Below, piece by piece: positions 17,017-62,285 of a stretch of 64,000 nt of DNA; the stretch's first letter is position 1, and each line of letters starts with the position of its first letter. The notes under the pieces were generated by a model. That model was not told the origin of the DNA and did not search any database. It saw nothing but the letters and a program-made list of their open reading frames with translations. The translations under genes were made by a program, and so were the position numbers. Source of the DNA: Limnothrix sp. BL-A-16 (GTDB lineage Bacteria; Cyanobacteriota; Cyanobacteriia; CACIAM-69d); the NCBI GenBank assembly GCA_041937175.2, contig CP166615.1, positions 3,552,001-3,616,000 on the forward strand, given 5' to 3'.

Positions 17017-17370
17017 GCAAGGGGCTGAGGGCTTGTCGTCCAATCGTCTGCAACCCTGATTTCAACCCGATAATCCCATGAGGGACAAGGGGCTGAGGGC
17101 TTGTTGTCCAATCGCCTGAACCCCTGATTTCAACCCGATAATCTCGTGAGGGACAAGGGGCTGAGGGATTGTTGTCCAATCGCCTGAACCCCTGGTTTCA
17201 ACCCGATAATCTCGTGAGGGACAAGGGGCTGAGGGCTTGTTGTCCAATCGCCTGAACCCCTGATTTCAACCCGATAATCCCATGAGGGACAAGGGGCTTA
17301 AGCCCCTTGTTACAACGACCGTGAGTGACGACTGCGGGCATGGAAAATCAACCGTCTCTCACTGATTCCA
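17017..17370 (-). repeat. Four 68-bp tandem copies of a MITE (family A) arm, then palindrome ACAAGGGGCTTAAGCCCCTTGT and a degenerate second arm
   Basis: Units start at 17017, 17085, 17153, 17221; palindrome 17289-17310; unit matches reverse complement of 58030-58107. Confidence 0.88.
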
Positions 17371-18380
17371 AGTTGCAAACTTTTTGCCAAAAACTGATCA
17401 TTCATTCACAAAATGCTTCGTGACCCTTTTGGGTGGAAATTCCCTAGAAAAGCTTAAGAAAACCAAAACTTTTAACAGAGATAAACAGAATTGAAGTTTC
17501 ATCAAAAGTAGGTAAAACAATATTAAGTAGAACACCGATCCCAATCTTGATCAGATCCCAACATTGCATTGACCCAGATCACAGATTTTTAGCTGCACCT
17601 TTGCCATGACGACCCGATCGAGTCAGTCATAGTTGCCGTCTGAACAGTTGCAGGCCGCCGCTTCTCTTCAGGGAAGAGTTTGCCGAAATGTCGTCTGAGT
17701 TTTGAGTGGGACTCACTTGGTATCAGAGGTAACCAATTAGGGATCGCGCCATTCGGAGGAACCGATGTCTTTAAATTGAAAGGAATTGTTGCTAAATTCC
17801 CCCGATCCCCGATCGGCTATTCCATAATGCTAAGAACGAGAATGAATTAGCCCCTCGATTCCATGATTGGTTTTGATCACCCTTGTTCCCTGCTCTCAAA
17901 ACCAGTCGCATCGCCTCTGAAATTGCTTTTTAAGGCATTCCTCCGTTGAGGTTTATGGCCGGTTGGCCGCCGGCTATTCACTGAATTTGTTGAAGTTATT
18001 GACAGTGCTATCTGCAAGGTCGTGAGGAGTCGAAAACGACGGAAATGCTCGAGAACAGCCCTTTCAGTCCCCTACTGCTTGAATTGGACTAATTGAATTG
18101 GGCTAATGGATATCGCACTCAAATGGATTCCGTCGTTTTTTGAGTTTTCTTGGTTAACGGGATGACTCAGCTCATATCGGTGTTGTTTTTCGTTGTTTTT
18201 CGTTTCTGATCGCGTTTTTTTATCACTGGATGTGAAGGATCGATCGCCCAGATCCGGTGCTCCCGCCGCAAATGCTCCTTGCATTGAGGGGGCGATCGCA
18301 CCTTCAGCCCATCCGCCGTTTAGACAAGCCAGTCGATGCCTCGGTTTAGTTCCTCAAATTTTTGCCAGATGGTGACCACA

Positions 18381-18569
18381 ATGCTGACCGTAGAAACGAT
18401 TTACTGCCCCAACTGTGGTTCGCGTGCAGAGCGTCATCGAATTCGCACGAGCAACGTGATTCGGACTCAGTGCCATGCTTGTGACTACTTGATGGTGACC
18501 TGCTCGCTCACGGCTCGGGTGCTGGAAGCCTACGCGCCAGGCATCGCGATCGCCCAACGATCGGCTTGA
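18381..18569 (+). CDS. Small cyanobacterial zinc-ribbon protein
   Basis: CPNCGS...TQCHACDYLM...EAYAPG, two CxxC pairs; start could be 18369. Confidence 0.8.
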   Translation: MLTVETIYCPNCGSRAERHRIRTSNVIRTQCHACDYLMVTCSLTARVLEAYAPGIAIAQRSA

Positions 18570-18637
18570 GTTTTTGCCCAATTCATTCCAAAACTTGGTG
18601 AATTGGGCTTGTTAATTGGAAGGGTTAATCTAGCTCG

Positions 18638-19141
18638 TTAATCTAGTCGGCGGGTGTTGCCGCTGCGAACCCAGCCCTCGGGGCCGCTTTCGCCCAGGCG
18701 CACCCGCTGCCAACGTCGATCGGGACTGTCTCCCAAGACAATGACCCGATCGTTGTAGTCCACGCTGCCCAGCCTTGCGCCCGATCGATTGGGAGTCGAT
18801 CGCAACACCAGCCCGATCGGTTGGGTCACCCGGGCCCGATAGGCACCGGGAGGCAAGGGCGACGGCGGTGGCAAAACTGGGGCTGGGGAAACTGCGCTGC
18901 TGGGCGGTGGGGGCGGGGTCACCACCGCGCCGGGCTTGGGATCGTTGGCAAAGCTGGGGCGCGGCGGGGCCGTGGCAATTTGGGTGACGATGTAGCGAAC
19001 GGCAATCACCCCTCCGGCAGCCAAAAAGGCGATCGCGATCGCGATGCCACTAATGAGGCTGACCAGCCCGCGCAATAGTTTCCACAGCCAACGCACGATC
19101 GTTTGCGACTCCCGATGAGGATCAACCACCAACCTGTCCAA
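18638..19141 (-). CDS. Membrane-anchored SH3b-domain protein
   Basis: N-terminal TM helix, Pro-rich linker, GLVLRSTP...WQRVR...EGWV; start uncertain. Confidence 0.8.
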   Translation of the reverse strand: MDRLVVDPHRESQTIVRWLWKLLRGLVSLISGIAIAIAFLAAGGVIAVRYIVTQIATAPPRPSFANDPKPGAVVTPPPPPSSAVSPAPVLPPPSPLPPGAYRARVTQPIGLVLRSTPNRSGARLGSVDYNDRVIVLGDSPDRRWQRVRLGESGPEGWVRSGNTRRLD

Positions 19142-19335
19142 AATATTTTGCTAACCGATCTAGCCCAGAGATTTCGCCAGCCTAGCTAGCCAGAGATTTC
19201 GCCAGATATCTAGCCAGGATATCCTGCGATTCAGCCCGTATTTTCCCTTAGAACCTGTTCTGGTCAGGGCGAAAATTTGGCTAATGCGGCTCGTTCAGCC
19301 CATTCAGCCCGATCGATCCAGAATTAGCCCGAGAA

Positions 19336-21027: not shown

Positions 21028-21265
21028 GTTAGCAGATCGTGGGGGCGTTAGCAGATCAGATCGTGGGGTGTTAGCAGATCAGATCGTGGAGGTGTTAGCA
21101 GATCAGATCGTGGGGGCGTTAGCAGATCAGATCATGGGGGTGTTAGCAGATCAGATCGTGGGGGTGTTAGCAGATCAGATCGTGGGGGACAAGGGGCTTA
21201 AGCCCCTTGTCTTCATCAGTCGCTGGGGTAAGCTGCGTATCAACTTTGGCTTTTCAGACATCTTT
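21028..21265. repeat. Seven copies of about 24-bp GTTAGCAGATCAGATCGTGGGGG next to the palindrome (21189-21210); chimeric MITE A/B
   Basis: Units at 21028, 21047, 21070, 21094, 21118, 21142, 21166; right side ends in TCAGACATCTTT (family B end). Confidence 0.85.
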
Positions 21266-21319
21266 TTAGAAAGTCAATTCAATTTTTCAACCGTTGAGTT
21301 TACTTAAACTTGCTATCAG

Positions 21320-21982: not shown

Positions 21983-21993
21983 GGAAGGTTGCC

Positions 21994-25800: not shown

Positions 25801-25803
25801 AAA

Positions 25804-48890: not shown

Positions 48891-49586
48891 ATGGATAGCA
48901 ACGTTTCGCCGAAGTCCCTTGTGTCGTCCGGGCCAAGCGGTTCCCAAGGCACAATTCCCGTGGCGGTTTATCGCCAATTGGCTTCGGAACTGCAAGCTAC
49001 CCGCGCCATGTTGGAAGCAGTGCAAAAGCACAATGCCCAACTGACCCAGCAGCGCGATCGCCTGCGATCGGACTTGGATGCCTTGGCGGAAGCCGTGGCC
49101 ACCCTGCGGGCCAATGCCACGCCCCAGGATGCCCCACGCCCCTTAGATCCCAATCCCTTGAGTGTTGCGCCCAGCGCCCCGATCGCCTCGCCGCCGCCGA
49201 TGGTGGCCAGGCCGCCGCAGCCCGCTTTGGCCCCCAACGCCCCGATCGCGGGAGATCCGTTCCAGCAAGCGGCCGTGAGTGATTGGAACGCCTTGCCGGA
49301 CTTGGAACCCATGGCGGAATTTTATGGAGCCGCCAACGAACCGCAACCGACCCGGCTGGGAGGCTTGGGCAACTTTGGGCGATCGACCCCCAACGGCGGC
49401 TCCGGCGAGTCCAGCTCTGGCATTTGGCCCATTTTGGCGATCGCCCTGATTGCCATGACGGCCTTTGGCATTAGCTTTGCCCTGGTGCGGCCGATCATGG
49501 ACAGCAAGCAAAAACCCTTCCAGCCAGCCCAACCCCAAATTCAGCCCAACCCCAGCCCCAACGCAGCGCCCGCCAATCCCCGCTAG
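48891..49586 (+). CDS. Hypothetical coiled-coil / Pro-rich protein with C-terminal TM
   Basis: PVAVYRQLASELQA coiled coil; TM ending TAFGISFALVRP. Confidence 0.75.
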   Translation: MDSNVSPKSLVSSGPSGSQGTIPVAVYRQLASELQATRAMLEAVQKHNAQLTQQRDRLRSDLDALAEAVATLRANATPQDAPRPLDPNPLSVAPSAPIASPPPMVARPPQPALAPNAPIAGDPFQQAAVSDWNALPDLEPMAEFYGAANEPQPTRLGGLGNFGRSTPNGGSGESSSGIWPILAIALIAMTAFGISFALVRPIMDSKQKPFQPAQPQIQPNPSPNAAPANPR

Positions 49587-49612
49587 CCATCACAACCGGC
49601 CTCAGACATCCC

Positions 49613-50095
49613 CTAAGCAACGGTTTCCAAGAGAGCCACGGCATAGGCACAGATGCCCTCCTCGCGTCCCGTGGGGCCCAATTTTTCGTTGGTGGTGGCC
49701 TTCACGCCAACGCGATCAGGTTCAATGCCCAAAACTTCCGCAAGGCGCGATCGCATGGCGTTGATGTGGGGTTTCAGTTTGGGCCGTTCCGCCACCACCA
49801 CGGAATCAATATTGCTGACTTGCCAACCCCGATCGCTCAGGAGTTGGTTGACCTGAGCCAGAAGCTTCAGGCTGTCTGCTCCCTTCCATTGGGGATCCGT
49901 GGGCGGAAAGTAGTGACCAATATCGCCCAGGCTGAGGGCCCCCAACATCGCATCCATAATTGCGTGGGTCAGCACATCCGCATCGCTGTGGCCTTCTAAT
50001 CCCAACTCGTGATCGATTTTGATGCCGCCCAAAATCAAGTCCCGATCGGGCCCCAGGCGATGAATGTCATAGCCATTGCCAATCCGAATTGCCAT
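49613..50095 (-). CDS. ispF: 2-C-methyl-D-erythritol 2,4-cyclodiphosphate synthase
   Basis: [29 protein letters not shown]. Confidence 0.97.
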
Positions 50096-50137
50096 CGATT
50101 TTCCTCCTGTATTTGCATCCCTAACTCAGCCATCGTT

Positions 50138-50412
50138 GAGAATGTCTGAACCGCCAAAAGTGATCCGCAACTGACCCAATTAATCAACGAACACAAGTCA
50201 ACGAACACAAGGCAACCAAGACAAGGGGCTTAAGCCCCTTGCTCCCCGACTGCTGGTGTTCTCTTGTTCCCCGACTGCTGGTGTTCTCTTGTTCCCCGAC
50301 TGCTGGTGTTCTCTTGTTCCCCGACTGCTGGTGTTCCCTTGCCCCTGCGACGACTGGCATTTAGCCAGTGCTTCCAGACACTTTTCAGACATCCTTCCTT
50401 TCAGACATCCTT
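50138..50412. mobile_element. MITE family B with palindrome and four 25-bp tandem repeats
   Basis: Ends GAGAATGTCTGA and TCAGACATCCTT (twice); palindrome at 50221; CCCCGACTGCTGGTGTT at 50244, 50269, 50294, 50319. Confidence 0.75.
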
Positions 50413-52070
50413 TAAGATTGGGTGGGTTGAATCAGCGGCAATAGCTCCGATCGCCGTTGATTCCAAGCAGCCAAAGCCGTCGGATCCGAAGCCGTATTCA
50501 GCTTCAGCAAAACCACCCCATCTTCCACCATTTGCACCCCATAGTAGCCTTGGGCCAGCACGCGATCGGCTAAGGGCACAAACTCCCGCAATTCACCCCG
50601 TTCCTTACTGAAAGCCACCTGATAGCGGGCTAAATGCCAAGTATCGGCCAGCAAATAATCAGCGGAATAAACCTGTTGATTATCACGACGAATTTCCGTC
50701 CAAGGAAGGCGAATAATCGCTCGGCGGCTGGACAGGGGTGGAACTAAATAAGTTGTGGCCGCAACGCTCGCATCTTCAGGAATTTGCGCGAGCACCTTGC
50801 GCACATGACCCACATGGTTCCACTGTTCCGGCAGCGACACATAAACCCAAGGCTGCACCGAATCAGGAATTAGAAAATATAAAACCCGATGGGGATTAGA
50901 CGTGAAGGAAAACAGCAACGAGAGGGCAATGCAAGCGGCCCAAAACCGCCGAAACTTCGGTTGTTTGAATCGATCGCCATGGGACTTCCACCACAAAATC
51001 GCCCCATAAAACATCCCCGGCACGATCGTGATCGCATAGCGAATGTTAATAGACAGAGCCGATTCCCCTTGCTGCAAGAAAATCTTCAGCAATCCAAACC
51101 CAGAAATAATCCAACTGGCGGGAGACAGGGCCGGCACGAAAGCCAAGGGCAACCAATGACCTGCTAAATATTTCAAGGTTTCAAAGGGCGGATTCACTAG
51201 CTCCCAAATCAATAGCCAAGGCTGAGTCAGCATGGCTTTCAAAATGTCAATCGAGGAAGCTTCCTCTTCACCCACATATTGCCCAAAACGCTCAATCATG
51301 AATCGTTTGGAAATATCTGGCGAAAAGAAGGGCATGAATACATTAGTACAGGTCACCACATACAGAAACGACAGGGTGCAAAGCCCCAATCCTTGGGATG
51401 GAAACCGGCGACTCAAGACCATGTAAGCCCCAATGCCAAATAACCCAATTCCTTGATCTTCACGAACCAATAAACTGAGACCTGCCACCAGCCAAAACAA
51501 CCACCAAATCCGCCTTTCCATGGCCAACAAAATGGTGAAGAAAAAGAGCGGAATTTGGCACAGGTCGTGGAAGTTGGAAAAGGTGGGGCCAATGACGGCG
51601 TTGGCGGCATAGTAGCCCGTGACAATCCAAGCGGAAACGGGGCCACTGAGGTGTTGCCGGGCCAGGGCATACAGCACAAAACCAGCGGCGGTAATTAGCC
51701 CCACTTGCAAAAACACCAGGGTGACGGCCTGGGAATGGAGGGCATAAATCGGCAGCCACAGGAGCAAGGCGGGGGTAAAGTGTTGCCCCAGACGACGATA
51801 GAACACTTCGGCGGCTTGTCCATCTTGTTTGACGGCGCTGGAGAGGGAGGAGGACAGGGAACTTTCAAACCAGCGCCCGTGCAGGTTATTCCAAAAAACC
51901 TGGTTAAAGATGCCCTGGTCGTAGGAAGCGTAGAGGGTGAAGTAGCGGTGCAAACCCAGGATGAGGGTCACTGCGCCGAACAGGGCGGCCACGATGCAAA
52001 CATGGCGCAGATTGGGGCGATCGCGCAGGGTGTTGCGCCCGAGGGTGAACCATTGGTTAACGACTTGCAT
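50412..52070 (-). CDS. DUF2079-family membrane protein (GT-C-like)
   Basis: YDQGIFNQVFWN, LGQHFTP, NFHDL, REDQG, many TMs. Confidence 0.85.
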   Translation of the reverse strand: MQVVNQWFTLGRNTLRDRPNLRHVCIVAALFGAVTLILGLHRYFTLYASYDQGIFNQVFWNNLHGRWFESSLSSSLSSAVKQDGQAAEVFYRRLGQHFTPALLLWLPIYALHSQAVTLVFLQVGLITAAGFVLYALARQHLSGPVSAWIVTGYYAANAVIGPTFSNFHDLCQIPLFFFTILLAMERRIWWLFWLVAGLSLLVREDQGIGLFGIGAYMVLSRRFPSQGLGLCTLSFLYVVTCTNVFMPFFSPDISKRFMIERFGQYVGEEEASSIDILKAMLTQPWLLIWELVNPPFETLKYLAGHWLPLAFVPALSPASWIISGFGLLKIFLQQGESALSINIRYAITIVPGMFYGAILWWKSHGDRFKQPKFRRFWAACIALSLLFSFTSNPHRVLYFLIPDSVQPWVYVSLPEQWNHVGHVRKVLAQIPEDASVAATTYLVPPLSSRRAIIRLPWTEIRRDNQQVYSADYLLADTWHLARYQVAFSKERGELREFVPLADRVLAQGYYGVQMVEDGVVLLKLNTASDPTALAAWNQRRSELLPLIQPTQS

Positions 52071-52395
52071 GGTCGATCGCGCCTTGAGCCTGTTAATGGG
52101 GAACTGAAGCGAATGGGGAATCCGGGGGCTATTGTGCCACGCGGGGTTGTCCTTCGTGGGGATCGGGAAGCCAAACCGGTCTGGGGCGCGGCTGGGGGCG
52201 GGCGATCGGGCGATCTCGGGCGATCTCGGGCGATCGGTCTAGGGGATCACAAGATTCGCAGGGCCGCTTAAGGGATTGCTGGAACTCTTCAAAGAAACGT
52301 TAAATCTTGCAAACAAACTCCACCGTTCCCCAAGGTTTCGGTTCAAGATAGCCTCAAATTTGCTGTGTTTCGGGCGTTTCACCCCTTCAGAATCT

Positions 52396-52662
52396 ATGTT
52401 GAACGTTTCTTTGTCCCTGCTGGCGGCTGTACCCACGACCCTCGAATGGAGTCCGAAGGTGGGTGCGGTGATGATTGCTTGCAATGTGCTGGCGATCGCC
52501 ATCGGCAAATACTCGATCAAGTATCCCAGCGCGGCTCCGGCCCTGCCCTCGCCCGCTTTGTTCGGTGGGATGGGCTTCCCGGCCCTGCTGGCCACCACGA
52601 GCTTTGGCCACATTCTCGGGTTAGGGACAATCTTGGGCTTGTCCTATCTGGGCGCAATGTAA
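52396..52662 (+). CDS. psaK: Photosystem I subunit PsaK
   Basis: PTTLEWSPKVGAVMIACNVLAI, LATTSFGHILG. Confidence 0.95.
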   Translation: MLNVSLSLLAAVPTTLEWSPKVGAVMIACNVLAIAIGKYSIKYPSAAPALPSPALFGGMGFPALLATTSFGHILGLGTILGLSYLGAM

Positions 52663-52938
52663 GGGGCGATCGCCCGATTTTGAAACTACCTGGTCATTCA
52701 GGGTGCATTGAACTCACCCAGTTTTTGACAGAGCGCGCGCCCAAAGGAGACCTGCAATTTCGCAAGACTCGGGCCGCAATGTGCTAAAAATTGGTGTGCC
52801 AAAACTAGTTTCCACTCCTCGCACCGCCATCGTCTAGCAATCGTTTATGTGCCGATCGGGTAGGGTTGCGTTTTGAACTTCAAAGCGACTCCTCTAATCC
52901 AGAGCTTCTTCAGAACTGATTGATAACGAATGGTTGAA

Positions 52939-52985
52939 GCGCCAAACTTCGGGACAGCATCCCCTGGGTTTGGCGCATTTTTTTT
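52939..52985 (+). terminator. Rho-independent terminator
   Basis: GCGCCAAAC...GTTTGGCGC stem followed by A and an 8-T run. Confidence 0.75.
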
Positions 52986-53052
52986 GGCTGGCCAGGGCGA
53001 TCTGATCCCGCATCCACTGCGAGATCCCCAGGGATCACAGGATCCTTGGGGG

Positions 53053-53128
53053 CAAGGGGTTTAAACCCCTTGTCTGGTGTTCTGGTGTTCTGGTGTTCTG
53101 GTGCTCTGGTGCTCTGGTGCTGGGGTGC
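53053..53128. repeat. Variant palindrome CAAGGGGTTTAAACCCCTTG plus 8-bp tandem repeat (TCTGGTGY x6, one degenerate)
   Basis: Read directly; repeat starts at 53073 right after the palindrome. Confidence 0.85.
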
Positions 53129-53149
53129 TCGGAGCAGCAGGGCAAATGC

Positions 53150-54961
53150 TTAGTGGGTGAGGCGATCGATCACGGCCGGTAGCCATTGGCCGGGAATGCT
53201 GGAGAGGGCGCGGCTTTGTCCCTCAAGGCCCAGGTGTTGATAGATGGCGCGAATGGTGGCGATCGCCCCGCTGAGGGCCCGATCGCGCAGGGGGGGCTGA
53301 TCCCCATGGGCGGTCAGAATCTGCACATAGGTCGCAAGGGCCCGATCAAGCTGGACTGCCCGATCACTCCCCGTCAAGGGCAAGTAAGAATCGATGCCCA
53401 ACTGTAGGTAAATCCAGGCCAACTGGCTGGCGGCGGCGGCGCGATCGAACCCAAGAGGAATAGCGGGATCAATAGCCAAAGCTTGGGCATAGGCTTGGGC
53501 CGCCCGTTGCCAGCAGTCTCGCCGCCGCTGAGGATCCAGCGGTTGCAGTTGTCGCCCCAGTTGCCAATAGGTTGTGCCCAGGTTGTTTTGGGTGGCCGCA
53601 TAGGCGGCGGGGCGATCGGCCGGGTTGCGATAGGGCAAGGCCGCTTCAAAGGCGCTGGCGGCCAGCAGCAACCACTGTTCTTGGACATCCACTTGGGCCA
53701 AGTTTAGGTAAGCGGTTCCCAAATTCGCCTGCACCGTGCCGTAGAGCAGGTCGGGTTGCAGGCGATCGTCACCGGGATGCGATCGCCCGGCGGCCGGTTC
53801 AGTCCCCAAAGATTCTGCATATTCTGCCAAAGCCGCTCGGTAACTGTCGATCGCCCCCTGCAACCGGGTCACCGAGTCGCCATAGCGGGCCCAACTCCAA
53901 AGGGCCGTACCCAAATTATTTCGCGCCGCCACTCGCCAAGCCCGATCGCCGCCGGAACAATCCCCGATCGCCGCTCGGTAGGCCAACACTGCCCGCTCCC
54001 AAGCCTCGGCCGGATCGCCCCAGCGCACCCAATCGCCATAAACTCCGCCCAGGTCGTAGTACAGCGATCGCAGGGCGGCCGGCTCCCCGTGGGTTTGCAC
54101 CCAGTCGATCGCCCGTTGATAGCATTGGGCCGCCGTTTCCAAGCTGGCTCGGGCCACTTCCGCCGTCACCCCCTTGGCCGCAGCTTTGGCGCGGGCCGCC
54201 GTGGCTTCCATCACCCACCGCTCCCAAACCGTCGGCGCGGGCGGACAGGGCGGCACAATCGGCTTGGCTCCTTCGTTGGGCCGGGGCAACACCGTCAGGG
54301 TCGGCCGTCCCCGATCGCGCCCACCAATCCAAGATCCAGCCCGATCGACTCCCGACAAGGGATTCAGCAACACCGCTGGCTGGCCTTCAAACTCAAACGT
54401 GCCCGTACAACAGGCCCAAAACTGCGGAGCCGATTCCCGAATCGTGTAGAGCCAAGGGCGGGGAACCCACAATAACAGACTCAAATTTCCGTTGGCCCAA
54501 TTGCTGGCCAGCGCTTCCAATTCCGCTAAAAATTGCCGTTGCAGTCGGGCCGCTTGCCGGGTCAGTTGTTCCACCCCCAACAGTTGCACCGTGGTTTCGG
54601 AAAGGGACTCGATCGCCCCGGAGAGGGTGGGTTGATGGGGTTCCAGGCGCAAGGTGGTGAGCTGCGGCGCGGGCAACTCCTGGGCCAACCGTCCCGCCAG
54701 TCGATCGCGCAGGGGCAAATCATCACAAACCACCAAAAACACCTGCCGCCGCAACCCCAACCCCAGGGACAGCCGCAACCGTTGATATAGCTCTTGGTTC
54801 CAACTGCCGGCTGCAGCGGAACGGGCGATCGAGCGGCTGGCCCGAGGGCGATCGGTCAAACTCTGGCTCGATCGACGGGCAGACCGAGCAACCCCCGGCA
54901 CCTCCAGCAAGGACGAACCGGAATCGGCAAAACTTGACAGGATAGGCAGCAAAGTGGGCAT
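53150..54961 (-). CDS. TPR-repeat protein
   Basis: NNLGTALW, ANLGTAY, YAATQNNLGTTYW; start uncertain. Confidence 0.85.
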   Translation of the reverse strand: MPTLLPILSSFADSGSSLLEVPGVARSARRSSQSLTDRPRASRSIARSAAAGSWNQELYQRLRLSLGLGLRRQVFLVVCDDLPLRDRLAGRLAQELPAPQLTTLRLEPHQPTLSGAIESLSETTVQLLGVEQLTRQAARLQRQFLAELEALASNWANGNLSLLLWVPRPWLYTIRESAPQFWACCTGTFEFEGQPAVLLNPLSGVDRAGSWIGGRDRGRPTLTVLPRPNEGAKPIVPPCPPAPTVWERWVMEATAARAKAAAKGVTAEVARASLETAAQCYQRAIDWVQTHGEPAALRSLYYDLGGVYGDWVRWGDPAEAWERAVLAYRAAIGDCSGGDRAWRVAARNNLGTALWSWARYGDSVTRLQGAIDSYRAALAEYAESLGTEPAAGRSHPGDDRLQPDLLYGTVQANLGTAYLNLAQVDVQEQWLLLAASAFEAALPYRNPADRPAAYAATQNNLGTTYWQLGRQLQPLDPQRRRDCWQRAAQAYAQALAIDPAIPLGFDRAAAASQLAWIYLQLGIDSYLPLTGSDRAVQLDRALATYVQILTAHGDQPPLRDRALSGAIATIRAIYQHLGLEGQSRALSSIPGQWLPAVIDRLTH

Positions 54962-55389
54962 GGCCAGCGTCCAGAAGCACGAGCGTAATCTCCTCTTCAA
55001 GACGGGTCACGCCGCTTCGGGATTTCCCAGGGCGATCGCCCGCCAATCGCCATTCAATTGTCATTCAATAGAAAATATTGGCGAAAATTGGCGAGAATTG
55101 GCGAAAAGATATTGGCGCGTCGGCCACAGCCCCTGAACGTTTCGCGATACTTTGATCGCAGGACTCGATCGCGCCGCTTTTCTGTTTCCCTGCCTCAAGC
55201 CGTCCCTGTAACAATACTTACCTCCAACTGGGCCGCCTAGATCCTGCCTTTTCTGTCACGATTTCAACAGAGTGCCCCGAGGAAACCGCCAGTCAGCCGC
55301 AGCAAAGTAATCACTGCTTGATCACTGTTTGATCATTGTCTAGCCCCTGTTCAATTCCTGTTCAATCGCTGTTGATTGGCCCCCTTGGC

Positions 55390-57966
55390 ATGAAACTTTC
55401 GCCCAGCAACCGTTTACTATTTGCCATTGCCCTTCGCAATTGGCTTTGGATTCTTGGGACTGTGATTCTAAGTTTCTGGAGCGGCATCTTTAACGGTGTC
55501 AGCATTGCCCTTTTGGTTCCGGGCATCCTGGCTTTTTTGGGTCGCAAAATTGACCTCGGAGCCGATGCCCCAGAACTGGTGCGCAACCTTCTTTCCACCT
55601 TTGATGCATTGCCCGAAGAGCAGCGGGGTGCTGCCATGGTGGCCACCATCGTGGGAGCCATTCTGATTAAAAACGTCCTGGCTTTTTTGAGCACTGCCGT
55701 TGGGGGGCACTTGTCCCGGGCCCTGGTCAATGACGGCACATTTCAAGGAATTCGGATGCTCCTCGGGGTGGGTTTGGATTTTTATAGCCGCACCAAAGCT
55801 GGCGATTTAATTCAACGCCTTGGCTCGGAAATGAGCGGAGCCGTGGGCACAATCAACACCGTGGTGCAAATTGTGGCCACGATGGTCACCTTGCTCACCT
55901 TCATTGGTTTATTGGTGGCCATTTCCTGGCAGCTCACGATTATTTCTAGTATTTTTGCCCTGTTGGTGGTGCTGAGTAACCAACGATTTGCCAAAAAACT
56001 CAAGGAATATGGCAAACGGGGGGTGCAGCTCAGTCGGCTTTACACCAGTCAACTTCTGGAGGCGATCGGGGGGATTCGGTTAATCAAGGCCACCAGCAGC
56101 GAGGATTTGGAATATAACCGCTTAACGGGCACGTTGCTGAAGCGGCAACGGGTGGATTTACATTCCCAAACCTTCAGCTCTTTTGTGGCTTCGGTGAATG
56201 AATTTTTAGTAGTGGCTTCGTTGCTCTCGATCGTCTGGATTGGACGATTTGTGTTTCCCGGATCCCTCGAAGCCTATGCGGCCATTCTATTAACTTACCT
56301 ATTCTTAATTTCGCGAGTTTTTGCCTTTGTCACCACCCTCGGGAAGGCGCTCAATAACTTAGCCCTTTGCTCGGCGGCCGTGGATGCCATGGTGCGTTTT
56401 TTAAGCCGCCAAGGCAAACATTTTGTGCCCGATGGGGCAGTGCCCTTTCCCGGTCTGCGGCAAGAAATTCGATTTGAAAATGTGTCCTTTGCTTACCCCA
56501 GCCGCGACAAAAGCCGGGTGCTCGATCGGGTTAATTTGCGCATTCCTCGGGGGACAACCCTGGCCCTGGTTGGTTCCTCAGGGGCCGGCAAGTCCACCCT
56601 GGCGGATTTGATGATTCGGTTTTATGACCCCACGGGCGGCCGGATCACGATCGATGGTCAGGATTTGCGCACGTTTTCCCTCCGCAGTTTGCACCAGTCC
56701 ATGGGCATCGTTAGCCAAGACACCTTTTTGTTTAACGACACGGTGCGGGCCAATATTGCCTATGGCTGCGAGGAGTTAACAGACAAGGCGGTGATGGAGG
56801 CGGCCAGGCGGGCCAATGCCTATGACTTCATCATGGATTTGCCGGAGCAGTTTGAAACCATGCTGGGCGATCGGGGGGTGCGCCTGTCTGGGGGCCAACA
56901 GCAGCGAATTGCGATCGCCCGGGCCCTGTTGCGCAACCCCGACATTTTGATTTTGGATGAGGCCACCAGCGCCCTGGATACGGTCTCGGAGCGCCAGGTG
57001 CAACAGGCCATTAACGAATTAAGCCGCGATCGCACCACGATCGTGATTGCTCACCGCCTGTCCACGGTGCAAAATGCCGACCAAATCGCCGTGCTCGATA
57101 AGGGGCAGGTGGTGGAGGTAGGAACCCATGCGGAGTTGTTGAGCAAGCGGGGTTACTATGCTCGCCTTTACGCGGTGCAGTTTTCCGAAAGCGCCACGAA
57201 AACCCCCGTCCGCTGCGAAAACGCCATGGAAAAACTGGTGATGGAGGAAACCATTTCCCAGTTGGGGGCACTGGAAGCGGAGGGGATCAAGATTGCCTTC
57301 GATCCGGGCAGTGTGATGGCTTGGGCCCTGAACCGATTGCCATCGCTCTATGCGGCCACCCAAGAGGGGGCTGCATTCCAGCGCTATGTGGCGGAAGATG
57401 TGTGGCGATCGACAGTCAGCGATCGGGTGGCGGAGGCGATCGAGCAAGTCCAGCAATCCCATTGGGAGGATGAGCGACATCCCCTGATTGAACAAATTCG
57501 GATGCGATCGGCGGTATTGGTGGAGCGGTTGTCCTATGAGGGACGGTTGCGGTTGAATGCGGTGATTGGCACGTTGGCGCTGTTGGCGGATGGGTTGGTG
57601 GAGTCGCCCCAGGAGGAATACGAGTCCCTGAAGGAGGCCTATCGAGCCACCATGCAGTTGCTGGCCACGCTGGAGTTGTTGGAGGATGCCACCGGGGGGC
57701 TGGAGTTCAAACCCCGATCGGGCAAAAAGGGCGATCGCGATGAGGCGCAAACCTCCATTTCCCGCGCGGTTTATCCACAGGTGAAACAGTTGGCGGAAAT
57801 GCTGGAGATTTTGGCCAGTGAGCTGATTGATGAATTACTGCCCGATCAGTCCATTTCCCAACAGGTCAGCCGCCAAACCGACTATCGCGCGGCCTACGAT
57901 GTGTCGATTTCGCTGCTCGATCGACTAGCGGCCATTGAAACCCGCGCCACGTCCTTAAGTGCTTAG
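55390..57966 (+). CDS. ABC exporter (HepA/MsbA-like TMD-NBD) with C-terminal ComFB-like and degenerate HisKA-like helical domains
   Basis: [25 protein letters not shown]; then NAMEKLV...ALNRLPSLY; then LSYEGRLRLNAVIG. Confidence 0.88.
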   Translation: MKLSPSNRLLFAIALRNWLWILGTVILSFWSGIFNGVSIALLVPGILAFLGRKIDLGADAPELVRNLLSTFDALPEEQRGAAMVATIVGAILIKNVLAFLSTAVGGHLSRALVNDGTFQGIRMLLGVGLDFYSRTKAGDLIQRLGSEMSGAVGTINTVVQIVATMVTLLTFIGLLVAISWQLTIISSIFALLVVLSNQRFAKKLKEYGKRGVQLSRLYTSQLLEAIGGIRLIKATSSEDLEYNRLTGTLLKRQRVDLHSQTFSSFVASVNEFLVVASLLSIVWIGRFVFPGSLEAYAAILLTYLFLISRVFAFVTTLGKALNNLALCSAAVDAMVRFLSRQGKHFVPDGAVPFPGLRQEIRFENVSFAYPSRDKSRVLDRVNLRIPRGTTLALVGSSGAGKSTLADLMIRFYDPTGGRITIDGQDLRTFSLRSLHQSMGIVSQDTFLFNDTVRANIAYGCEELTDKAVMEAARRANAYDFIMDLPEQFETMLGDRGVRLSGGQQQRIAIARALLRNPDILILDEATSALDTVSERQVQQAINELSRDRTTIVIAHRLSTVQNADQIAVLDKGQVVEVGTHAELLSKRGYYARLYAVQFSESATKTPVRCENAMEKLVMEETISQLGALEAEGIKIAFDPGSVMAWALNRLPSLYAATQEGAAFQRYVAEDVWRSTVSDRVAEAIEQVQQSHWEDERHPLIEQIRMRSAVLVERLSYEGRLRLNAVIGTLALLADGLVESPQEEYESLKEAYRATMQLLATLELLEDATGGLEFKPRSGKKGDRDEAQTSISRAVYPQVKQLAEMLEILASELIDELLPDQSISQQVSRQTDYRAAYDVSISLLDRLAAIETRATSLSA

Positions 57967-58107
57967 GGCTTGTCGTCATTTCCTAGGACCAGACGGAAAC
58001 AATTGATTTTCCATGTCCCAGTCGTTGTAACAAGGGGCTTGAGCATCTTGTCCCCCACGATCTACTAACGGCGGAATCAGGGTTTCAGGCGATTTGACGA
58101 CACACCC
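57966..58107. mobile_element. MITE family A (142 bp), TA-flanked
   Basis: TIRs GGGCTTGTCGTCA / TGACGACACACCC, TA on both sides, degenerate central palindrome. Confidence 0.8.
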
Positions 58108-58143
58108 TAGGAGAAGAAGGTTGTTGGGTCTTGCGGATTTGAG

Positions 58144-59109
58144 TTAGCTGAATCTGGACAAACCCGATCGCGACCACAGGCGATCGAACCGCGTTGGCCC
58201 CAAGAGGATCGTGAGGCCAATCTTGCCGCCGAGGATTGCCAAAAAGCGCCATTCTCGCCACAGGTGCGGCCCAAACCACAGGGCCAACAACAGCAACCGA
58301 GCCGATCGCCACCCACGCCCCCGATCGCGCGGCCCCGCCGTCAGGGCTTTGCAGGCTAACCCTTTGTAAAACCGCGATCGCGCCGATCGCCCCACAGCCT
58401 GAGACCTTGGCCCCGCCTTGGCCAAATGGCACTCTAACACCGCATTACAAGCCCGCTCCAGCCGCCGCAAATTGGCCGAGGACGATCGATCCGAAACCCG
58501 GTAGCGCACTTGGGCCTCGGGAATCAGCACAAATTCACCCAACCCAGCCAGGCGCAACCACAAATCCCAGTCTTCCGCCGGAATGAGTTCCGTTTGGAAG
58601 CCCCCCACCTGCTCCAGGGCCGATCGACGAATCAGGGGATTGGAGCCATTTTCAATGAAATTATTCAGCAACAGGGCGGTGAACACCTGGCCCTGATGGC
58701 GATCGCGAAAGCCCGGGTGACGCAGTTGATTGTCATCATCCACATAGTCCGTCCAACTGTAGGCCAACACAGCGGCCGGGTTGTCCGCCAAGGCAGCCAC
58801 CCGATCGGCCAAGGCCGTTGGAGTCCACCAATCATCCGCATCCAAAAAGGCAATCAGGGATCCCCGAGCCGCCGCCAAGCCGCAATTTCGGGCGATCGCC
58901 TGACCCCCGTTGGTCTGTCGCAACACCCGAATTCGCGGATCAGCCGTTTGCAGGGCAATCTCCCCCGTCTGATCCGTGGAGCCATCATCCACCACGATCG
59001 CTTCCCAGTCCGCCCAAGTCTGCGATCGCAAGGCGGCGAGGGTTTCGGGCAAAGTGGCCGCCGCGTTATAGGCCGGAATGATGACTGAAACCTTAGGGCC
59101 TGTCGTCAT
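58144..59109 (-). CDS. GT2-family glycosyltransferase
   Basis: VSVIIPAYN, VDDGSTD, ARN, FLDADD, EDWDLWLR. Confidence 0.95.
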   Translation of the reverse strand: MTTGPKVSVIIPAYNAAATLPETLAALRSQTWADWEAIVVDDGSTDQTGEIALQTADPRIRVLRQTNGGQAIARNCGLAAARGSLIAFLDADDWWTPTALADRVAALADNPAAVLAYSWTDYVDDDNQLRHPGFRDRHQGQVFTALLLNNFIENGSNPLIRRSALEQVGGFQTELIPAEDWDLWLRLAGLGEFVLIPEAQVRYRVSDRSSSANLRRLERACNAVLECHLAKAGPRSQAVGRSARSRFYKGLACKALTAGPRDRGRGWRSARLLLLALWFGPHLWREWRFLAILGGKIGLTILLGPTRFDRLWSRSGLSRFS

Positions 59110-59239
59110 TTCCTGGGATCCAGTAAAAATAGTTGATCTTCCATACCCTAACCACCCCAGACAAGGGGCTTAAGCCCCTTGCCCCCCCATGATCTCGTCC
59201 CGATGGAATCCAGGTTTCAGCTAATTTGACGACACCCCC
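59096..59239. mobile_element. MITE family A (144 bp), TA-flanked
   Basis: TIRs GGGCCTGTCGTCA / TGACGACACCCCC, TA at 59094 and 59240, intact palindrome at 59161. Confidence 0.8.
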
Positions 59240-59293
59240 TAGGGATGATCTACTCATACCAGGAATCAATTCAGAAATTAACGTTATGGGCGA

Positions 59294-59751
59294 TTATGGG
59301 CGATCGCTCCATTCCGCAAAATCTACAGTCATAGCCTGTTCAAAGTTTAAGACTGGGGCGGTTGGGAACTGGTCGATCGGCAGATCGGTTTCAGCTTCTG
59401 CCTGCGAGCCTTCGCATAGGCTTTATCGACGAACTCCGAGAGTCGAGCTTGCAGGCTGGGATTATCGGTTAGCAGGTCTTCAATCTCGATCCGTGCATTT
59501 TTGATCGAAATTGACCATGAGCGCGATCGCCTGTGAGCTTGATAGTGCCACTTCAGGAGATGCAGATAGAGGCGTGCAAGCTGATTAACGAGTGCGTCTC
59601 GTTTCGATGCCCCCAAGCTCTCGATCTCCTCAATCAGATTTTCTAGATCAATATCTGCCAAACGACCGGATTTCAGCAACTCAACTTGCTGCTGAATCCA
59701 GCCGTGGTAATCCGTTTCGTAGGTGTTGGCGGCAATGGTTTTGGCTGTCAT
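59294..59751 (-). pseudogene. DUF29-family protein, frameshifted near C-terminus
   Basis: YETDYHGW, NLIEEIESLG, HLLKWHYQ, NPSL; expected tail AEAETDLPIDQFP continues in another frame from about 59402. Confidence 0.8.
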
Positions 59752-59778
59752 GGGCGATCGCTCCTAAACCCGCTTTCA

Positions 59779-59956
59779 GAGGATGTTTGAGCAGGAACTG
59801 GGGCTACTAGCAAGATACGAGTAGTCGTAGGGGCAAGGGGCTTAAGCCCCTTGTCTTCGTCGATCGAGGCAACCCGCAAGGTAACAACTTTGGCTTTAGG
59901 GCAGACCACGATCGCGCGGTTGGGGCCGTCACCATCAACGTTGTTTTGACATCCTC
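59779..59956. mobile_element. MITE family B
   Basis: GAGGATGTTTGA...TTTGACATCCTC ends; palindrome at 59834-59853; arms alignable with 50138-50412. Confidence 0.65.
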
Positions 59957-59987
59957 TCCAGTTTAAGCGGTGTCAGAGTTGCCAACC

Positions 59988-60173
59988 CTAATTGCCGCAA
60001 TTCGTACAGGTACAGTTCGCGCCGCAGGTACAGGAACCGGAACCACCACAACCACAGCCTGAAGCATAGGCAGCGGTCGGCGCGATCACGGTCAAAGCAG
60101 CAGCCACAGCACCCAAAATCTTGATCGTGCGGCGACCTTTGGACGATTGCGATGTCGAAGTCTGTTGAGTCAT
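59988..60173 (-). CDS. Exported metallothionein-like peptide (signal peptide plus 7-Cys tail)
   Basis: MTQQ...KGRRTIKILGAVAAALTVIAPTAAYA / SGCGCGGSGSCTCGANCTCTNCGN; AGGAG RBS about 9 nt upstream. Confidence 0.78.
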   Translation of the reverse strand: MTQQTSTSQSSKGRRTIKILGAVAAALTVIAPTAAYASGCGCGGSGSCTCGANCTCTNCGN

Positions 60174-60220
60174 GGGTTTGTTCTCCTGCTTGCACAAGGG
60201 CAAGTTTGACTAATAATTCA

Positions 60221-60252
60221 ACTCTATTCTCTCTAGTAAGCTATAGAGTCAA
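60221..60252 (-). promoter_or_regulatory. MerR-family (PbrR/CadR/ZntR-type) operator-promoter
   Basis: Minus strand TTGACT-CTATAGCTTACTAGAGAGAA(20 bp)-TAGAGT with CTCTA...TAGAG dyad. Confidence 0.72.
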
Positions 60253-60314
60253 GAGGCGGCGCGATCGAGTAAGACAATGGGAATGAAGCAGCCAGTTTTG
60301 ATGGAGCAGCCCCC

Positions 60315-60896
60315 GTGACTTCGGGAAATTTGACCCAACAACCCAATCACCCAACCGAGTCCGCCATTCCGCCTCACTGGGTGTTCACTCAGGTCGATCG
60401 CCCGGAACAGCCCGAGACCCAAACCCAGGATGCCGCCGCTGCCGATCATGGCCTGCGCCAGTTGGCCCTGGTGGCCGAGGATCGGGTGAAGGTGCGCCGA
60501 CAGGTCACCCTTGATGATGGGACGGTGGCTTGGTTGCAACTGGCCCGGGGCACAGTGCTGCGGCCGGGCGATCGACTGCGCACCGTCCAGGGAGACTGTT
60601 GCCGGGTGGTGGCGCAACCGGAACCGGTGCTGACGGTGCGATCGCCCGATCGACTGTCCCTGTTGCAAGCGGCCTATCATTTGGGCAACCGCCATGCGCC
60701 CCTGGAAATCACGATCGATTATTTGCGGCTCGCGCCGGATCCAACCCTGAAAGATTTGCTGGAACGACGCGGCCTCCAAGTGATTGAGGAAATCGCCCCC
60801 TTTGTGCCGGATCCGGGAGCCTATTCAACGGTCGATCGCGCCCACCATACCCACCACCATCACCACGACCACGCCAATTCCCATCACCATGAGTGA
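60315..60896 (+). CDS. ureE: Urease accessory Ni chaperone UreE
   Basis: RGTVLRPGD, AAYHLGNRHAPL, PFVPDPGAY, His-rich tail; start uncertain. Confidence 0.93.
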   Translation: MTSGNLTQQPNHPTESAIPPHWVFTQVDRPEQPETQTQDAAAADHGLRQLALVAEDRVKVRRQVTLDDGTVAWLQLARGTVLRPGDRLRTVQGDCCRVVAQPEPVLTVRSPDRLSLLQAAYHLGNRHAPLEITIDYLRLAPDPTLKDLLERRGLQVIEEIAPFVPDPGAYSTVDRAHHTHHHHHDHANSHHHE

Positions 60897-61581
60897 GCCA
60901 TTGTCCCGATCGCTTGCCCTGTTGCAATTGGCTAGCCCGGCCTTGCCCGTGGGAGCCTTTAGCTATTCCGAGGCGATCGAAACCTTGGTGGACAAGGGCC
61001 AGGTGAGATCGGCTGCCGATTTGACCGACTGGTTGCGACAGGAGTTACGGGTGGGCAGCATCCGTCTGGAAGCGGCGGCCCTGCTGAAGGCGCGACAGGC
61101 GATCGATCAGGGCAATCGGGACTCCATTCACCACTGGAATCAATGGATTTCGGCCTTGCGAGAAACGGAAGAATTGCGGTTACAAAGTTGGCAAATGGGG
61201 CGATCGTTGGTCACCTTGGCCAAGGATCTCAACCCAGCCGATACCACCTTAGTGACGCTGAATCTGCAACCAGTGAACTATGCGATCGCCTTTGCCAGTT
61301 TGGCTGCCCATTGGCAACTGAGCCACGCGGAAATGTTGACCGCCTATCTACAATCTTGGGCCAGCAATTTGGTGAGCGCTGGGGTTCGTTCCATCCCGAT
61401 CGGTCAAACCCAAGGTCAGCAAACATTACTCAATTTATGGTCTGACTTAACCGCCGCCATCACTGAAATTCAGCAACTCGCCACCGCTGATACGGATGAT
61501 GATTGGTTTGCTTGTGGTTGGGGCCTCTCGATCGCCAGCATGACCCACGAAACCCAATACAGCCGCCTCTTCAGAAGCTAG
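60889..61581 (+). CDS. ureF: Urease accessory protein UreF
   Basis: LQLASPALPVGAFSYS, QMGRSL, PIGQTQGQ, HETQYSRLFRS. Confidence 0.95.
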   Translation: MSEPLSRSLALLQLASPALPVGAFSYSEAIETLVDKGQVRSAADLTDWLRQELRVGSIRLEAAALLKARQAIDQGNRDSIHHWNQWISALRETEELRLQSWQMGRSLVTLAKDLNPADTTLVTLNLQPVNYAIAFASLAAHWQLSHAEMLTAYLQSWASNLVSAGVRSIPIGQTQGQQTLLNLWSDLTAAITEIQQLATADTDDDWFACGWGLSIASMTHETQYSRLFRS

Positions 61582-61657
61582 TTAGCCGCTTGGCTGATGT
61601 TTTTCTCATCGACCTGAAGCACAATAGAATTAGCTCGAAAATACCAGAGGAAAAAGA

Positions 61658-62230
61658 ATGGTTGCCGCCAGAGAGAATCAGCCCCATTTCACACCGGAAG
61701 CCTATTTTGAGTGGGAAGCCCAACAGCTCGAACGGCATGAGCTAATCGATGGTCATGTCTACGCCATGAGTGGCGGCACAAAAAACCACAGCGAGATCGC
61801 TAGCAACATTCTCATGATCATCAAGCCTCATTTACGAGGTGGTCAATGCCGAGTTTTTAATTCTGATGTAAAGATCAACATTCTTAATACATCTAACTAT
61901 ACCTATCCAGATCTCAGCGTGACTTGCGATGATCGAGACCAGAAAACTCCCCTTTACAGTACTTATCCTTGCTTGATTGTTGAAGTTCTCTCCCCCAGTA
62001 CTGAGTCCTACGATCGCTGGAAAAAGTTTGAAAAATATCGCCGCAATCCAAATCTGATTGACTACGTGTTAGTTAGTTCCGAAGAGGTGGCGGTTGATAT
62101 CTACCACAGGAATAGTGCGGGAGATTGGGTGATTTTGAGCTATCGATCGGGCGATCAGGTTGAACTGCAAAGTATTGGGCTAACCGTGGCGATCGAGGAA
62201 TTCTATGAAGGAATTATGTTTGAAGAATAG
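61658..62230 (+). CDS. Uma2-family PD-(D/E)xK endonuclease
   Basis: RHELIDG, YPDLSV, VEVLSPST, YVLVS. Confidence 0.93.
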   Translation: MVAARENQPHFTPEAYFEWEAQQLERHELIDGHVYAMSGGTKNHSEIASNILMIIKPHLRGGQCRVFNSDVKINILNTSNYTYPDLSVTCDDRDQKTPLYSTYPCLIVEVLSPSTESYDRWKKFEKYRRNPNLIDYVLVSSEEVAVDIYHRNSAGDWVILSYRSGDQVELQSIGLTVAIEEFYEGIMFEE

Positions 62231-62251
62231 TCAAAGTCCACCGACACGAAA

Positions 62252-62285
62252 TCATGAGGGTAAGGGGCTTAAGTCCCTTGTAACA
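62252..62285. repeat. Degenerate copy of the AAGGGGCTTAAGCCCCTTG palindrome
   Basis: CATGAGGGTAAGGGGCTTAAGTCCCTTGTAAC, with flanks resembling 17281-17316. Confidence 0.6.

Follow-up and report, generated by a model that had tools for sequence, protein, structure and literature searches.

Why do unrelated tandem repeats gather beside the copies of one short palindrome? The question is raised by a stretch of 64,000 nucleotides (nt) of contig CP166615.1 of the cyanobacterium Limnothrix sp. BL-A-16 (hereafter the window), for which an initial annotation, made from the letters alone, had described a 20-nt palindrome in eight copies, four of them directly abutting different tandem arrays, as a hub of local amplification. 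We examined the palindrome in the window, in the whole BL-A-16 genome (4.56 Mb, two contigs, no N), and in a sister genome of the same genus, which is 93-95% identical and collinear with the window. The palindrome was searched in the window and the genome as a 20-mer with up to three mismatches, and the window arrays were called by Tandem Repeats Finder (TRF). Coordinates are window positions unless C1 is named. The overall best explanation, to which we assign a probability of about 0.7, is that transposable elements of the miniature inverted-repeat kind (MITEs) sharing the palindrome as their core have nested in one another, and that the arrays arose from the repeats created by this nesting.

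The Palindrome and the Elements around It

All eight copies lie where they had been reported. Five are exact (17290, 21190, 50222, 59162, and 59834), those at 53053 and 62261 carry two mismatches each, and that at 58031 carries three. Eight matches compare with 0.01 expected in the window, and none of 100 shuffles attained this number. The genome contains 326 exact palindromes and 512 with up to three mismatches, evenly spread over the chromosome. TRF confirmed the four abutting arrays and found a fifth, at 50185-50226, in addition.

The arms read outward from the 512 palindromes pair as A/B (96), C/D (74), and E/F (24), while both arms are unclustered in 163 palindromes. Every arm pair has its own inverted repeat at about 66-76 bp from the palindrome centre. 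Judged from these arms and repeats, the palindrome is the conserved core of at least three MITE families, designated F1, F2, and F3. F1 is about 144 bp long, has the ends GGGCCTGTCGTC ... GACGACAGGCCC, which are conserved at 80-99% in 96 aligned copies, and duplicates TA. Its copies are small (142-144 bp), non-coding, and numerous, with 114 terminus pairs less than 420 bp apart. F2 has the ends GAGGATGTCTGAAAAG and a TNA duplication; its termini (n = 255) are preceded by C (73%), T (93%), any base, and A (94%). F3 has the ends GTAGCGTG ... CACGCTAC and duplicates the TA inside CTAG. The paired termini enclose a palindrome in 106 of 114 cases for F1, 89 of 93 for F2, and 9 of 9 for F3. The eight F1-end pairs without a palindrome represent about six copies of a variant of about 190 bp and a few deletions.

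Conservation next to the 20-mer is limited to two pyrimidines in 160 arms of other genomes, and the core, counted with its flanking purine and pyrimidine pairs, comprises 24 nt. No clear case of a MITE copy lacking the palindrome alone, as expected if the core inserted by itself, was seen among the genome-wide terminus pairs. For comparison with the sister genome, 40 of its palindromes were taken with their flanks, and 39 could be placed in BL-A-16 (individual loci are cited by L numbers); among these 39 ortholog pairs, we found no indel of the 24-nt core alone. The proposed origin of three arrays from flanking element sequence also proved correct: the 68-bp array consists of an F1 arm plus a half-palindrome, the 24-bp array of the inner F1 arm, and the 25-bp array of the inner F2 arm. 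The palindrome is a focus of local reiteration, with enrichment of tandem repeats at its centre, but it is itself the centre of MITEs and does not stand free.

The variant of about 190 bp has F1 ends, and its core consists of two inverted GTAG-tagged hairpins, resembling the doublets of repetitive extragenic palindromic (REP) sequences known as REPINs, in place of the palindrome. It occurs in BL-A-16 at C1:725207-725386, 914899-915047, 1215565-1215766, 1896935-1897124, 1980992-1981182, and 4527049-4527239. In the sister genome it occupies the orthologs of window 17029-17298 and of C1:327306, where BL-A-16 has a palindrome-type element with a 68-bp array. An exchange of cores between copies with common ends is suggested.

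Mobility and Insertion Target

The palindrome sites are the main source of structural difference between the two close cyanobacterial genomes. Over 21.5 kb of the window, the alignment is broken six times, in every case at a palindrome-bearing element, and among the 39 orthologous 200-bp segments centred on a palindrome, only 6 have the same length, and 16 differ by more than 100 bp. Clean filled/empty pairs place F1 at ordinary TA sites at window 57966-58107, at window 59096-59239, and at L074. In six further cases (L067, L069, L075, L088, L070, and locus 2460855), a full F1 occupies the central TA of a palindrome whose counterpart in the other genome is intact. F3 is represented by one such pair, in the TA of CTAG (L076). 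The sole empty site for F2 (L066) fits a TNA duplication only roughly, with TAA/TCA vs AA.

Traces of nesting are also seen within BL-A-16 itself. Thirteen of 46 full F1 copies are flanked by half-palindromes outside both ends. An outer half-palindrome stands beside 23 of 84 arm-A units and 44 of 90 arm-B units that adjoin a full palindrome. Palindrome centres account for about 335-512 of the 29,696 non-coding TA sites (~1-2%). The flanks at non-nested F1 ends read T (90%), A (85%), R (90%), G (50%), S, and C (50%). F1 thus prefers the symmetric target GSCY-TA-RGSC, of which the palindrome centre, GCT-TA-AGC, is a perfect example. Because the centre matches the preferred target, F1 often lands in the palindrome centre of another element.

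Enrichment of Tandem Arrays at the Palindrome Centre

The genome-wide count and the enrichment test that had been proposed along with the hub both bear it out. Among the genome arrays with a period of at least 8 and at least four copies, 20 of 107 abut a palindrome within 5 bp; with at least three copies, 34 of 350 do so. At 26 of the 512 palindromes, an array begins or ends no more than 12 bp from the centre, compared with 6.24 ± 2.54 (maximum 16) for random non-coding positions in 1000 draws. The non-coding mask is crude (greedy open reading frames (ORFs) of at least 100 aa), and the enrichment ratios are therefore approximate in size. By the same measure, positions 35 bp off centre gave 7/1024, those 70, 105, and 140 bp off centre gave 17/1024, 17/1024, and 15/1024, and the F2 termini gave 3/246. 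An earlier control, which also counted positions inside arrays, showed a smaller enrichment, 27 vs 11.0 (maximum 22). Forty-three array ends were counted at distances of up to 60 bp from a centre, and 13 of these are at -1 to +1.

Arrays lying on one and the same side of their palindromes do not cluster robustly along the chromosome (z = -0.45, n = 60; z = -1.66, n = 29; z = -0.93, n = 18). A hand count had hinted at runs of array sides, which the scripted test did not uphold.

Two tandem duplications were observed that each include a whole palindrome. At C1:2268755 (L104), BL-A-16 carries a 112-bp duplication that also takes in the 3' end of a coding region, and at C1:1648974 (L088) a 76-bp (x3) duplication; the sister genome has a single copy at both loci.

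Structure and Age of the Arrays

The 68-bp unit begins with the F1 terminal repeat, continues with arm B, and stops with the left half-palindrome, and TA or GA connects successive units. Every array closes with a single intact palindrome, after which comes an arm A. We identified 17 whole-arm B arrays with a period of 68-69, 11 of which have at least three copies (up to 6.7); in eight of the 17, aligned in register, the boundaries fall at the terminal repeat and at the central TA. Only two arm-A arrays exist, of about two copies each, and the array-internal units number 27 for arm B vs 3 for arm A. The units within one array share array-specific variants, a pattern that points to local copying.

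The 68-bp arrays are recent, and their copy number differs between the two genomes. Locus 2500131 has four units in BL-A-16 vs one in the sister genome; at locus 2460855, a nested F1 with five units in BL-A-16 faces an intact palindrome; and at locus 327306, four units face the variant of about 190 bp at the same TA. No comparable ortholog was obtained for the array at 2787814, where the contigs of the sister genome end. Single half-elements were found at L084 (a B unit in BL-A-16) and L093 (an A unit in the sister genome), with an intact palindrome in the respective other genome. None of five candidate half-elements was located at a non-palindromic site, a result that speaks against independent movement of half-elements.

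In the short arrays (8-25 bp), arm sequence has expanded locally, with the palindrome centre as the anchor. Many of them repeat two bases, often TA or GA, plus a few arm bases and a half-palindrome, and then close with TA and the other half. Others, among them those at 21033, 50238, and 53073 in the window, reiterate nothing but the arm sequence beside the palindrome. The short array at L085 has three units in one genome vs two in the other. The anchoring may be due to stalling at the hairpin, to breakage of its tip, or to the activity of a putative transposase at its target.

The stretch is held in public reads by 17 runs from 14 studies, all as short-read contigs that stop at arrays. One contig joint skips 221 bases of the 68-bp array (runs X10 and X14) with only 24 bases on one side, and one contig (run X14) omits 23 bases of the 24-bp array at 21047; both are too weak to indicate length variation. 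These elements account for the points at which contigs break off in this group's short-read assemblies, which is of use for genome annotation.

Palindrome-Bearing Sites in the Window

The arrays, arms, and elements described below lie on the + strand; the palindromes are given without strand. The left half of an older outer palindrome (CAAGGGGCT, 17018-17026), followed by GA, is cut off from its right half by inserted material. Four tandem 68-bp F1 half-elements follow (17029-17298, with starts at 17029, 17097, 17165, and 17233), called by TRF as 68 bp x4.2 at 17014-17298 with 94% matches. Each unit consists of the terminal repeat (GGGCTTGTCGTC), arm B, and a half-palindrome, with GA or TA at the joints. 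The array has no counterpart in the sister genome, where the half-palindrome is split at the same point by a different element of about 190 bp with F1 ends. The half-palindrome of the last unit, TA, and the right half of the outer palindrome together make up the exact palindrome at 17290-17309. This is succeeded by a degenerate arm A of the outer F1-type element (17310-17375, from the arm A consensus), which is orthologous to the arm in the sister genome; the inner arm A is missing from the array.

Three palindromes, at 21190, 50222, and 59834, have F2-type arms. The 24-bp x6.5 array at 21033-21188 (TRF) is built from the inner part of F1 arm B (GTTAGCAGATC..GATCGTGGGGG). It is followed by the exact palindrome found by the 20-mer search at 21190-21209 and by an arm that resembles the consensus of F2 arm C and ends in CTTTTCAGACATC (21210-21270). 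The exact palindrome at 50222-50241 is the centre of an F2-type element, and the whole block of about 240 bp is absent from the sister genome. A 14-bp x3 array lies to its left (50185-50226, TRF), and a 25-bp x4.2 array to its right (50238-50341, TRF) repeats the inner F2 arm D in units opening with CTTG, the last four palindrome bases. The third, at 59834-59853, is exact and sits in a degenerate F2-like element (59779-59897), in place of which the sister genome has unrelated sequence.

At 53053-53072, a palindrome variant with a compensated pair of changes and the centre TTTAAA, also present in the sister genome, folds at -8.6 kcal/mol. The adjoining 8-bp x7.2 array (TCTGGTGY, 53073-53130, TRF) is represented there by a different array of 16-bp units. 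Two complete F1 MITEs follow. The first, of 142 bp (57966-58107), comprises arm A, the degenerate palindrome at 58031-58050, and arm B, between TA duplications at 57964-57965 and 58108-58109. The second, of 144 bp (59096-59239), encloses the exact palindrome 59162-59181, folds at -22.4 kcal/mol (z = -3.2), and lies between TA duplications at 59094-59095 and 59240-59241. The sister genome has an empty site with a single TA in both places. A degenerate stand-alone palindrome with two mismatches (62261-62280), conserved in the sister genome, lies between a Uma2-like ORF and a nucleotidyltransferase ORF.

The neighbours of the eight palindromes are ordinary genes, among them those for Mg-protoporphyrin methyltransferase, IspF, ABC transporters, a glycosyltransferase, DUF29, and Uma2. 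The whole window gave no match to Rfam at gathering thresholds. Elsewhere in the window, a 120-bp x6.2 tandem repeat (11849-12589) lies within a long ORF (10352-12853) and probably encodes a protein repeat of 40 residues. The G+C content falls from about 0.55 to 0.44 at 62001-64000, and the Uma2-like nuclease ORF (61658-62230) and the nucleotidyltransferase ORF (62336-62695) stand at the edge of this region. The genome also contains 5226 copies of the highly iterated palindrome HIP1 (GCGATCGC), vs about 101 expected, a richness that, together with the chlorophyll gene, is characteristic of a cyanobacterium.

Fold, Constraint, and Distribution of the Palindrome

Folded as DNA, the 20-mer reaches -9.0 kcal/mol (z = -3.4). 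A compensated variant, with changes on both sides of the stem, is present in 10 copies, is commoner than its one-sided forms, and keeps the fold. The spread of F1 needs no stem, because an F1 subfamily of 68 copies carries a broken palindrome (-3.9 kcal/mol, z = -0.9). In 364 pairs of the form AAGGGGC...GCCCCTT genome-wide, no excision footprint was seen at the palindrome centre: the loop is 4 nt in 363, and the sole exception has a longer spacer, not a small central insertion.

In the 15 ortholog pairs in which both flanks could be aligned, differences affect 7 of 300 sites in the palindrome, vs 123 of 900 in the 30-nt flanks next to it. The copies of the sister genome had been picked as exact, which biases this comparison about 2-fold; the gap persists. 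The low divergence points to constraint or to conversion between copies, and hence to a putative protein partner.

At L068, the sister genome has an exact palindrome, and the ortholog in BL-A-16 near C1:4069416 carries the three-mismatch variant that has 68 copies genome-wide, with similar flanks. This difference suggests conversion between copies rather than three separate point changes.

By a crude ORF map, 148 of 470 intergenic palindromes lie between convergent genes, an enrichment over the 17% share of these regions in intergenic bases, and 58 lie between divergent genes, a depletion relative to a share of 27%. The palindrome was also considered as an intrinsic terminator. This reading was rejected: only one of six palindromes in window 49000-63000 passes a scan for a hairpin and a T-run, and its tail is weak.

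Among 41 related genomes, the exact 20-mer was present in 14, BL-A-16 included, with counts of 272, 94, and 28 in its own family and of 1-38 in other families; a reversed control pattern had no match in the 41. In a scan of public genomes with one genome per species, the 20-mer was found in at least 116 stretches, for a chance expectation that we calculate to be near one for a 20-base word in that collection. Among the 80 matches listed, most are from cyanobacteria of many orders, and about 20 are from metagenome-assembled genomes labelled as other phyla or uncultured bacteria. In other families, the palindrome lies within unrelated small elements ending TATAGC...GCTATA, or alone. In the papers covered by a text search, the central 14-mer and 12-mer of the palindrome had no match, and the matches of the 10-mer were unrelated.

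Candidate Enzymes

The initial annotation had stated that no candidate enzyme is encoded in the window, and this was borne out: the matches to Y1, DDE_3, DDE_Tnp_1, DDE_Tnp_1_2, and TnpB-type transposases all lie elsewhere in the genome. It had also named, as something to look for, a transposase of insertion sequences (ISs) or a REP-associated tyrosine transposase (RAYT) flanked by the palindrome; no transposase with matching ends was found in BL-A-16. The ends of the three IS630-like (DDE_3) copies are unlike those of F1, F2, and F3, and so are the ends of about ten IS5-like matches (nine of them mutually similar full copies) and of five TnpB genes. Distant pairs of MITE termini in the genome enclose ordinary genes. 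The F1 terminal repeat is absent at 13 DDE_3 loci of five relatives, and one of these relatives has 28 palindromes and no DDE_3 match.

One IS5-like insertion sequence (about 912 bp, nine similar copies) directly adjoins a palindrome in the C1:280498 region.

A single RAYT-like gene is present in the genome (C1:1721486-1722283, 265 aa, Y1_Tnp at 1.6e-17 in the genome search). No palindrome was found within 1.5 kb of it (3.3 kb around the gene were checked), and there are no obvious flanking hairpins. Its motifs, NHVH, WE, and YIHGNP, resemble by eye those of a subclass that appears without REPs in a listing in PMC6006769. The genome has 17 GTAGGGGYKGGG sites, the nearest of which is 175 kb from this gene.

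The orientation of the elements shows no regional runs (z = -0.8 to -0.4), which would fit double-strand transposition by a DDE enzyme better than single-strand spread by an HUH enzyme, but the GC skew is lopsided and too weak to define replichores or a replication origin. Target duplications of TA or TNA are typical of DDE transposases.

Origin of the Arrays

We propose the following course of events. An F1 insertion at the centre splits an old palindrome into two halves and supplies a new intact one, so that elements nest. Nesting leaves each F1 arm between direct repeats of 11-13 nt, formed by the old half-palindrome plus TA and the matching half of the new palindrome. Slipped or unequal pairing between these repeats could then gain or lose whole half-elements and produce 68-bp arrays that each end in one intact palindrome. 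Once a first duplication had occurred, the 68-bp homology would drive further changes in copy number. An array-carrying element keeps both outer ends and so could still transpose to ordinary TA sites. The slippage step, which the hairpin may stimulate, is in our estimate somewhat better than an even bet as the origin of the 68-bp arrays. It fits because units of one array share specific variants, because both gains and losses occur, because single half-elements exist at L084 and L093, and because none of the five candidate half-elements lay away from a palindrome.

Several observations weigh against this account. Symmetric slippage leaves the arm-B bias unexplained (17 arrays vs 2; 27 internal units vs 3). 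Neither the array at 327306 nor that at 2787814 has an outer half-palindrome, and both begin at a plain TA, which would take the extra assumption that an element already carrying an array transposed via its outermost end. The search for an autonomous element that shares the ends of F1, F2, or F3 brought none to light in BL-A-16, and none at the DDE_3 matches of the five relatives. The two genomes were compared without an outgroup, so that any filled/empty pair might in principle represent a deletion. The short-read contigs of four public runs end at arrays without bridging them and so give no independent check of copy number.

The arm-B bias would be accommodated if half-elements had been inserted one after another to build the arrays, the half-palindrome (GACAAGGGGCT) standing in for the second end. 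A unit of terminal repeat, arm B, and half-palindrome would enter the central TA of a palindrome and rebuild the palindrome, and the array would grow unit by unit. The unit boundaries at TA|terminal repeat and at the central TA are indeed exact, even in the two arrays without an outer half-palindrome, with TA or an inherited GA at every junction. The inner end of arm B (GACAAGG) resembles by eye the terminal GACAGG, whereas arm A reads AACAAGG. The half-elements at L084 and L093 differ in sequence from the local arms while the sister palindrome is intact, and many short arrays have the same layout, with NA, flank, and half-palindrome repeated before TA and the other half. However, half-elements are missing from non-palindromic TA (none of five candidates), although 61 of 84 full-element arm-A ends lie at ordinary sites. 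In addition, the units of one array are mutually closest relatives, cut-and-paste alone would not raise copy number, and L084 and L093 could also have begun as full nested insertions, one half of which was then lost between half-palindrome repeats. We regard this route as possible but rather unlikely. In a wider form of the same idea, which we consider no better than tentative and unlikely, the 24-nt palindrome would be a self-propagating landing pad, letter-perfect across many cyanobacterial orders in MITEs that are unrelated otherwise, because a putative enzyme recognises it and cuts its central TA, while half-elements regenerate the site and arrays grow. If true, the palindrome-carrying elements would create new safe targets for themselves, and the growth of the arrays would be a previously undescribed route to minisatellites. 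A doubtful but serious competitor dispenses with transposition: the hairpin alone would stall the fork, or be cut at its tip by a host hairpin nuclease, and faulty restart would create the arrays, the MITE context being incidental. The fold of the 20-mer and the stem kept by its compensated variant favour this, as do the peak of array ends at -1 to +1 and the enrichment at the centre rather than in the surrounding element; moreover, the arrays of 8-25 bp cannot be transposition products and differ between the sister genomes. Yet only 26 of the 512 palindromes have an array, array sides do not cluster robustly on the chromosome, and the whole-arm units bounded by the terminal repeat, together with the nested TA-duplicating insertions, are left unexplained.

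The initial annotation had proposed that the hairpin is a nicking or stalling site at which an HUH/RAYT nuclease, a transposase, or slippage triggers reiterative copying. The involvement of a transposase is upheld in one respect, with the central TA as a preferred F1 target in six filled/empty pairs, and slippage is likely; the HUH/RAYT part is not supported, in view of the unlinked RAYT-like gene, the TA/TNA duplications, and the absence of regional orientation bias. As a full account, a REP/RAYT system, in which an HUH tyrosine transposase would recognise and nick the palindrome as a REP, spread it, and amplify its flanks as in clusters of bacterial interspersed mosaic elements (BIMEs), is largely refuted and very improbable. 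It draws on the high copy number of an extragenic palindrome enriched between convergent genes, on the presence of one RAYT-like gene, and on the tandem-reiterated REP clusters with flanking DNA described in PMC3733652. Set against these are that gene's isolation from palindromes and obvious hairpins, its by-eye likeness to the subclass that the listing in PMC6006769 gives without REPs, the terminal inverted repeats and TA/TNA duplications of the palindrome carriers, the lack of regional bias in their orientation, and the absence of a conserved GTAG/CGTC tag beside the core in 160 arms across genomes, GTAG being present in arm C only. Assembly artefacts are hardly credible as the source of the arrays. 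The short-read contigs of the four public runs do stop at arrays, but the genome is in two contigs with no N, 17 arrays of the same design lie at separate loci with locus-specific variants, and the independently assembled sister genome has related yet different arrays at orthologous sites. The nesting of MITEs that share the palindrome core remains the reading that we prefer.

Comparison with Known Systems

The Correia elements of Neisseria are MITEs of IS630/Tc1-mariner type. MITEs are common among cyanobacteria as well, Nezha being one example (PMC3184786). Like the IS630/Tc1-mariner MITEs described in that source, F1 and F3 are small, non-coding, high-copy, intergenic elements with terminal inverted repeats and a TA duplication, recently moved between close genomes. 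Unlike such MITEs, F1 carries its own best target at its centre, nests in itself and in other families, and has halves in tandem arrays, and no cognate autonomous element with matching ends was found here. F2 agrees in its 3-bp TNA duplication (255 termini) with MITEs of IS5/Harbinger type.

IS1397 and the IS110 family provide examples of insertion sequences that target REPs. Such insertion sequences, as presented in PMC3184786, likewise choose the centre of a repeated palindrome. In contrast to them, the invading element here is itself a MITE and carries in a further copy of that palindrome. The REP, BIME, and REPIN sequences described in PMC3733652 and PMC6006769 share with our palindrome the character of a short, G+C-rich extragenic palindrome in hundreds of copies, with tandem clusters that include flanking DNA. 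They differ in that here no RAYT is linked, the GTAG/CGTC tag is missing, and the palindrome lies inside target-duplicating elements. Unlike BIME clusters, the arrays are direct repeats of half-palindromes, not of alternating whole palindromes.

The small dispersed repeats (SDRs) of Nostocaceae, reportedly described by Elhai et al. in 2008, are said to be modules of 21-27 nt with hairpin potential that occur in minitransposons and tandem repeats and are self-nested. By this description, they agree with the present case in having a 21-27-nt hairpin module in minitransposons and tandem repeats, in a host that here is not obviously one of the Nostocaceae; in the passages of PMC5861425 that bear on them, SDR-like repeats are given as not found outside that family. 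Unlike SDRs, the core alone was not seen as an indel among our 39 ortholog pairs. The Porphyromonas gingivalis element BrickBuilt (PMC4596501) is a MITE with an internal minisatellite, and the pneumococcal BOX elements (PMC3184786) are comparable: as these sources describe them, both contain, like the F1 arrays, tandem units that vary in number within the frame of a MITE. The unit here differs from theirs in being a half-element that ends at the palindrome centre, with boundaries formed by a transposon end and its target.

To our knowledge, the combination of one exact core across families with different ends and duplications, one family that aims at this core, and half-element arrays that end at the target has not been described. 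It offers a testable explanation for the gathering of tandem repeats at a single dispersed palindrome, in which a MITE carrying its own target nests in its kin and thereby creates the short direct repeats from which minisatellites would arise. The system is selfish DNA of a known kind in an unusual, self-nesting form.

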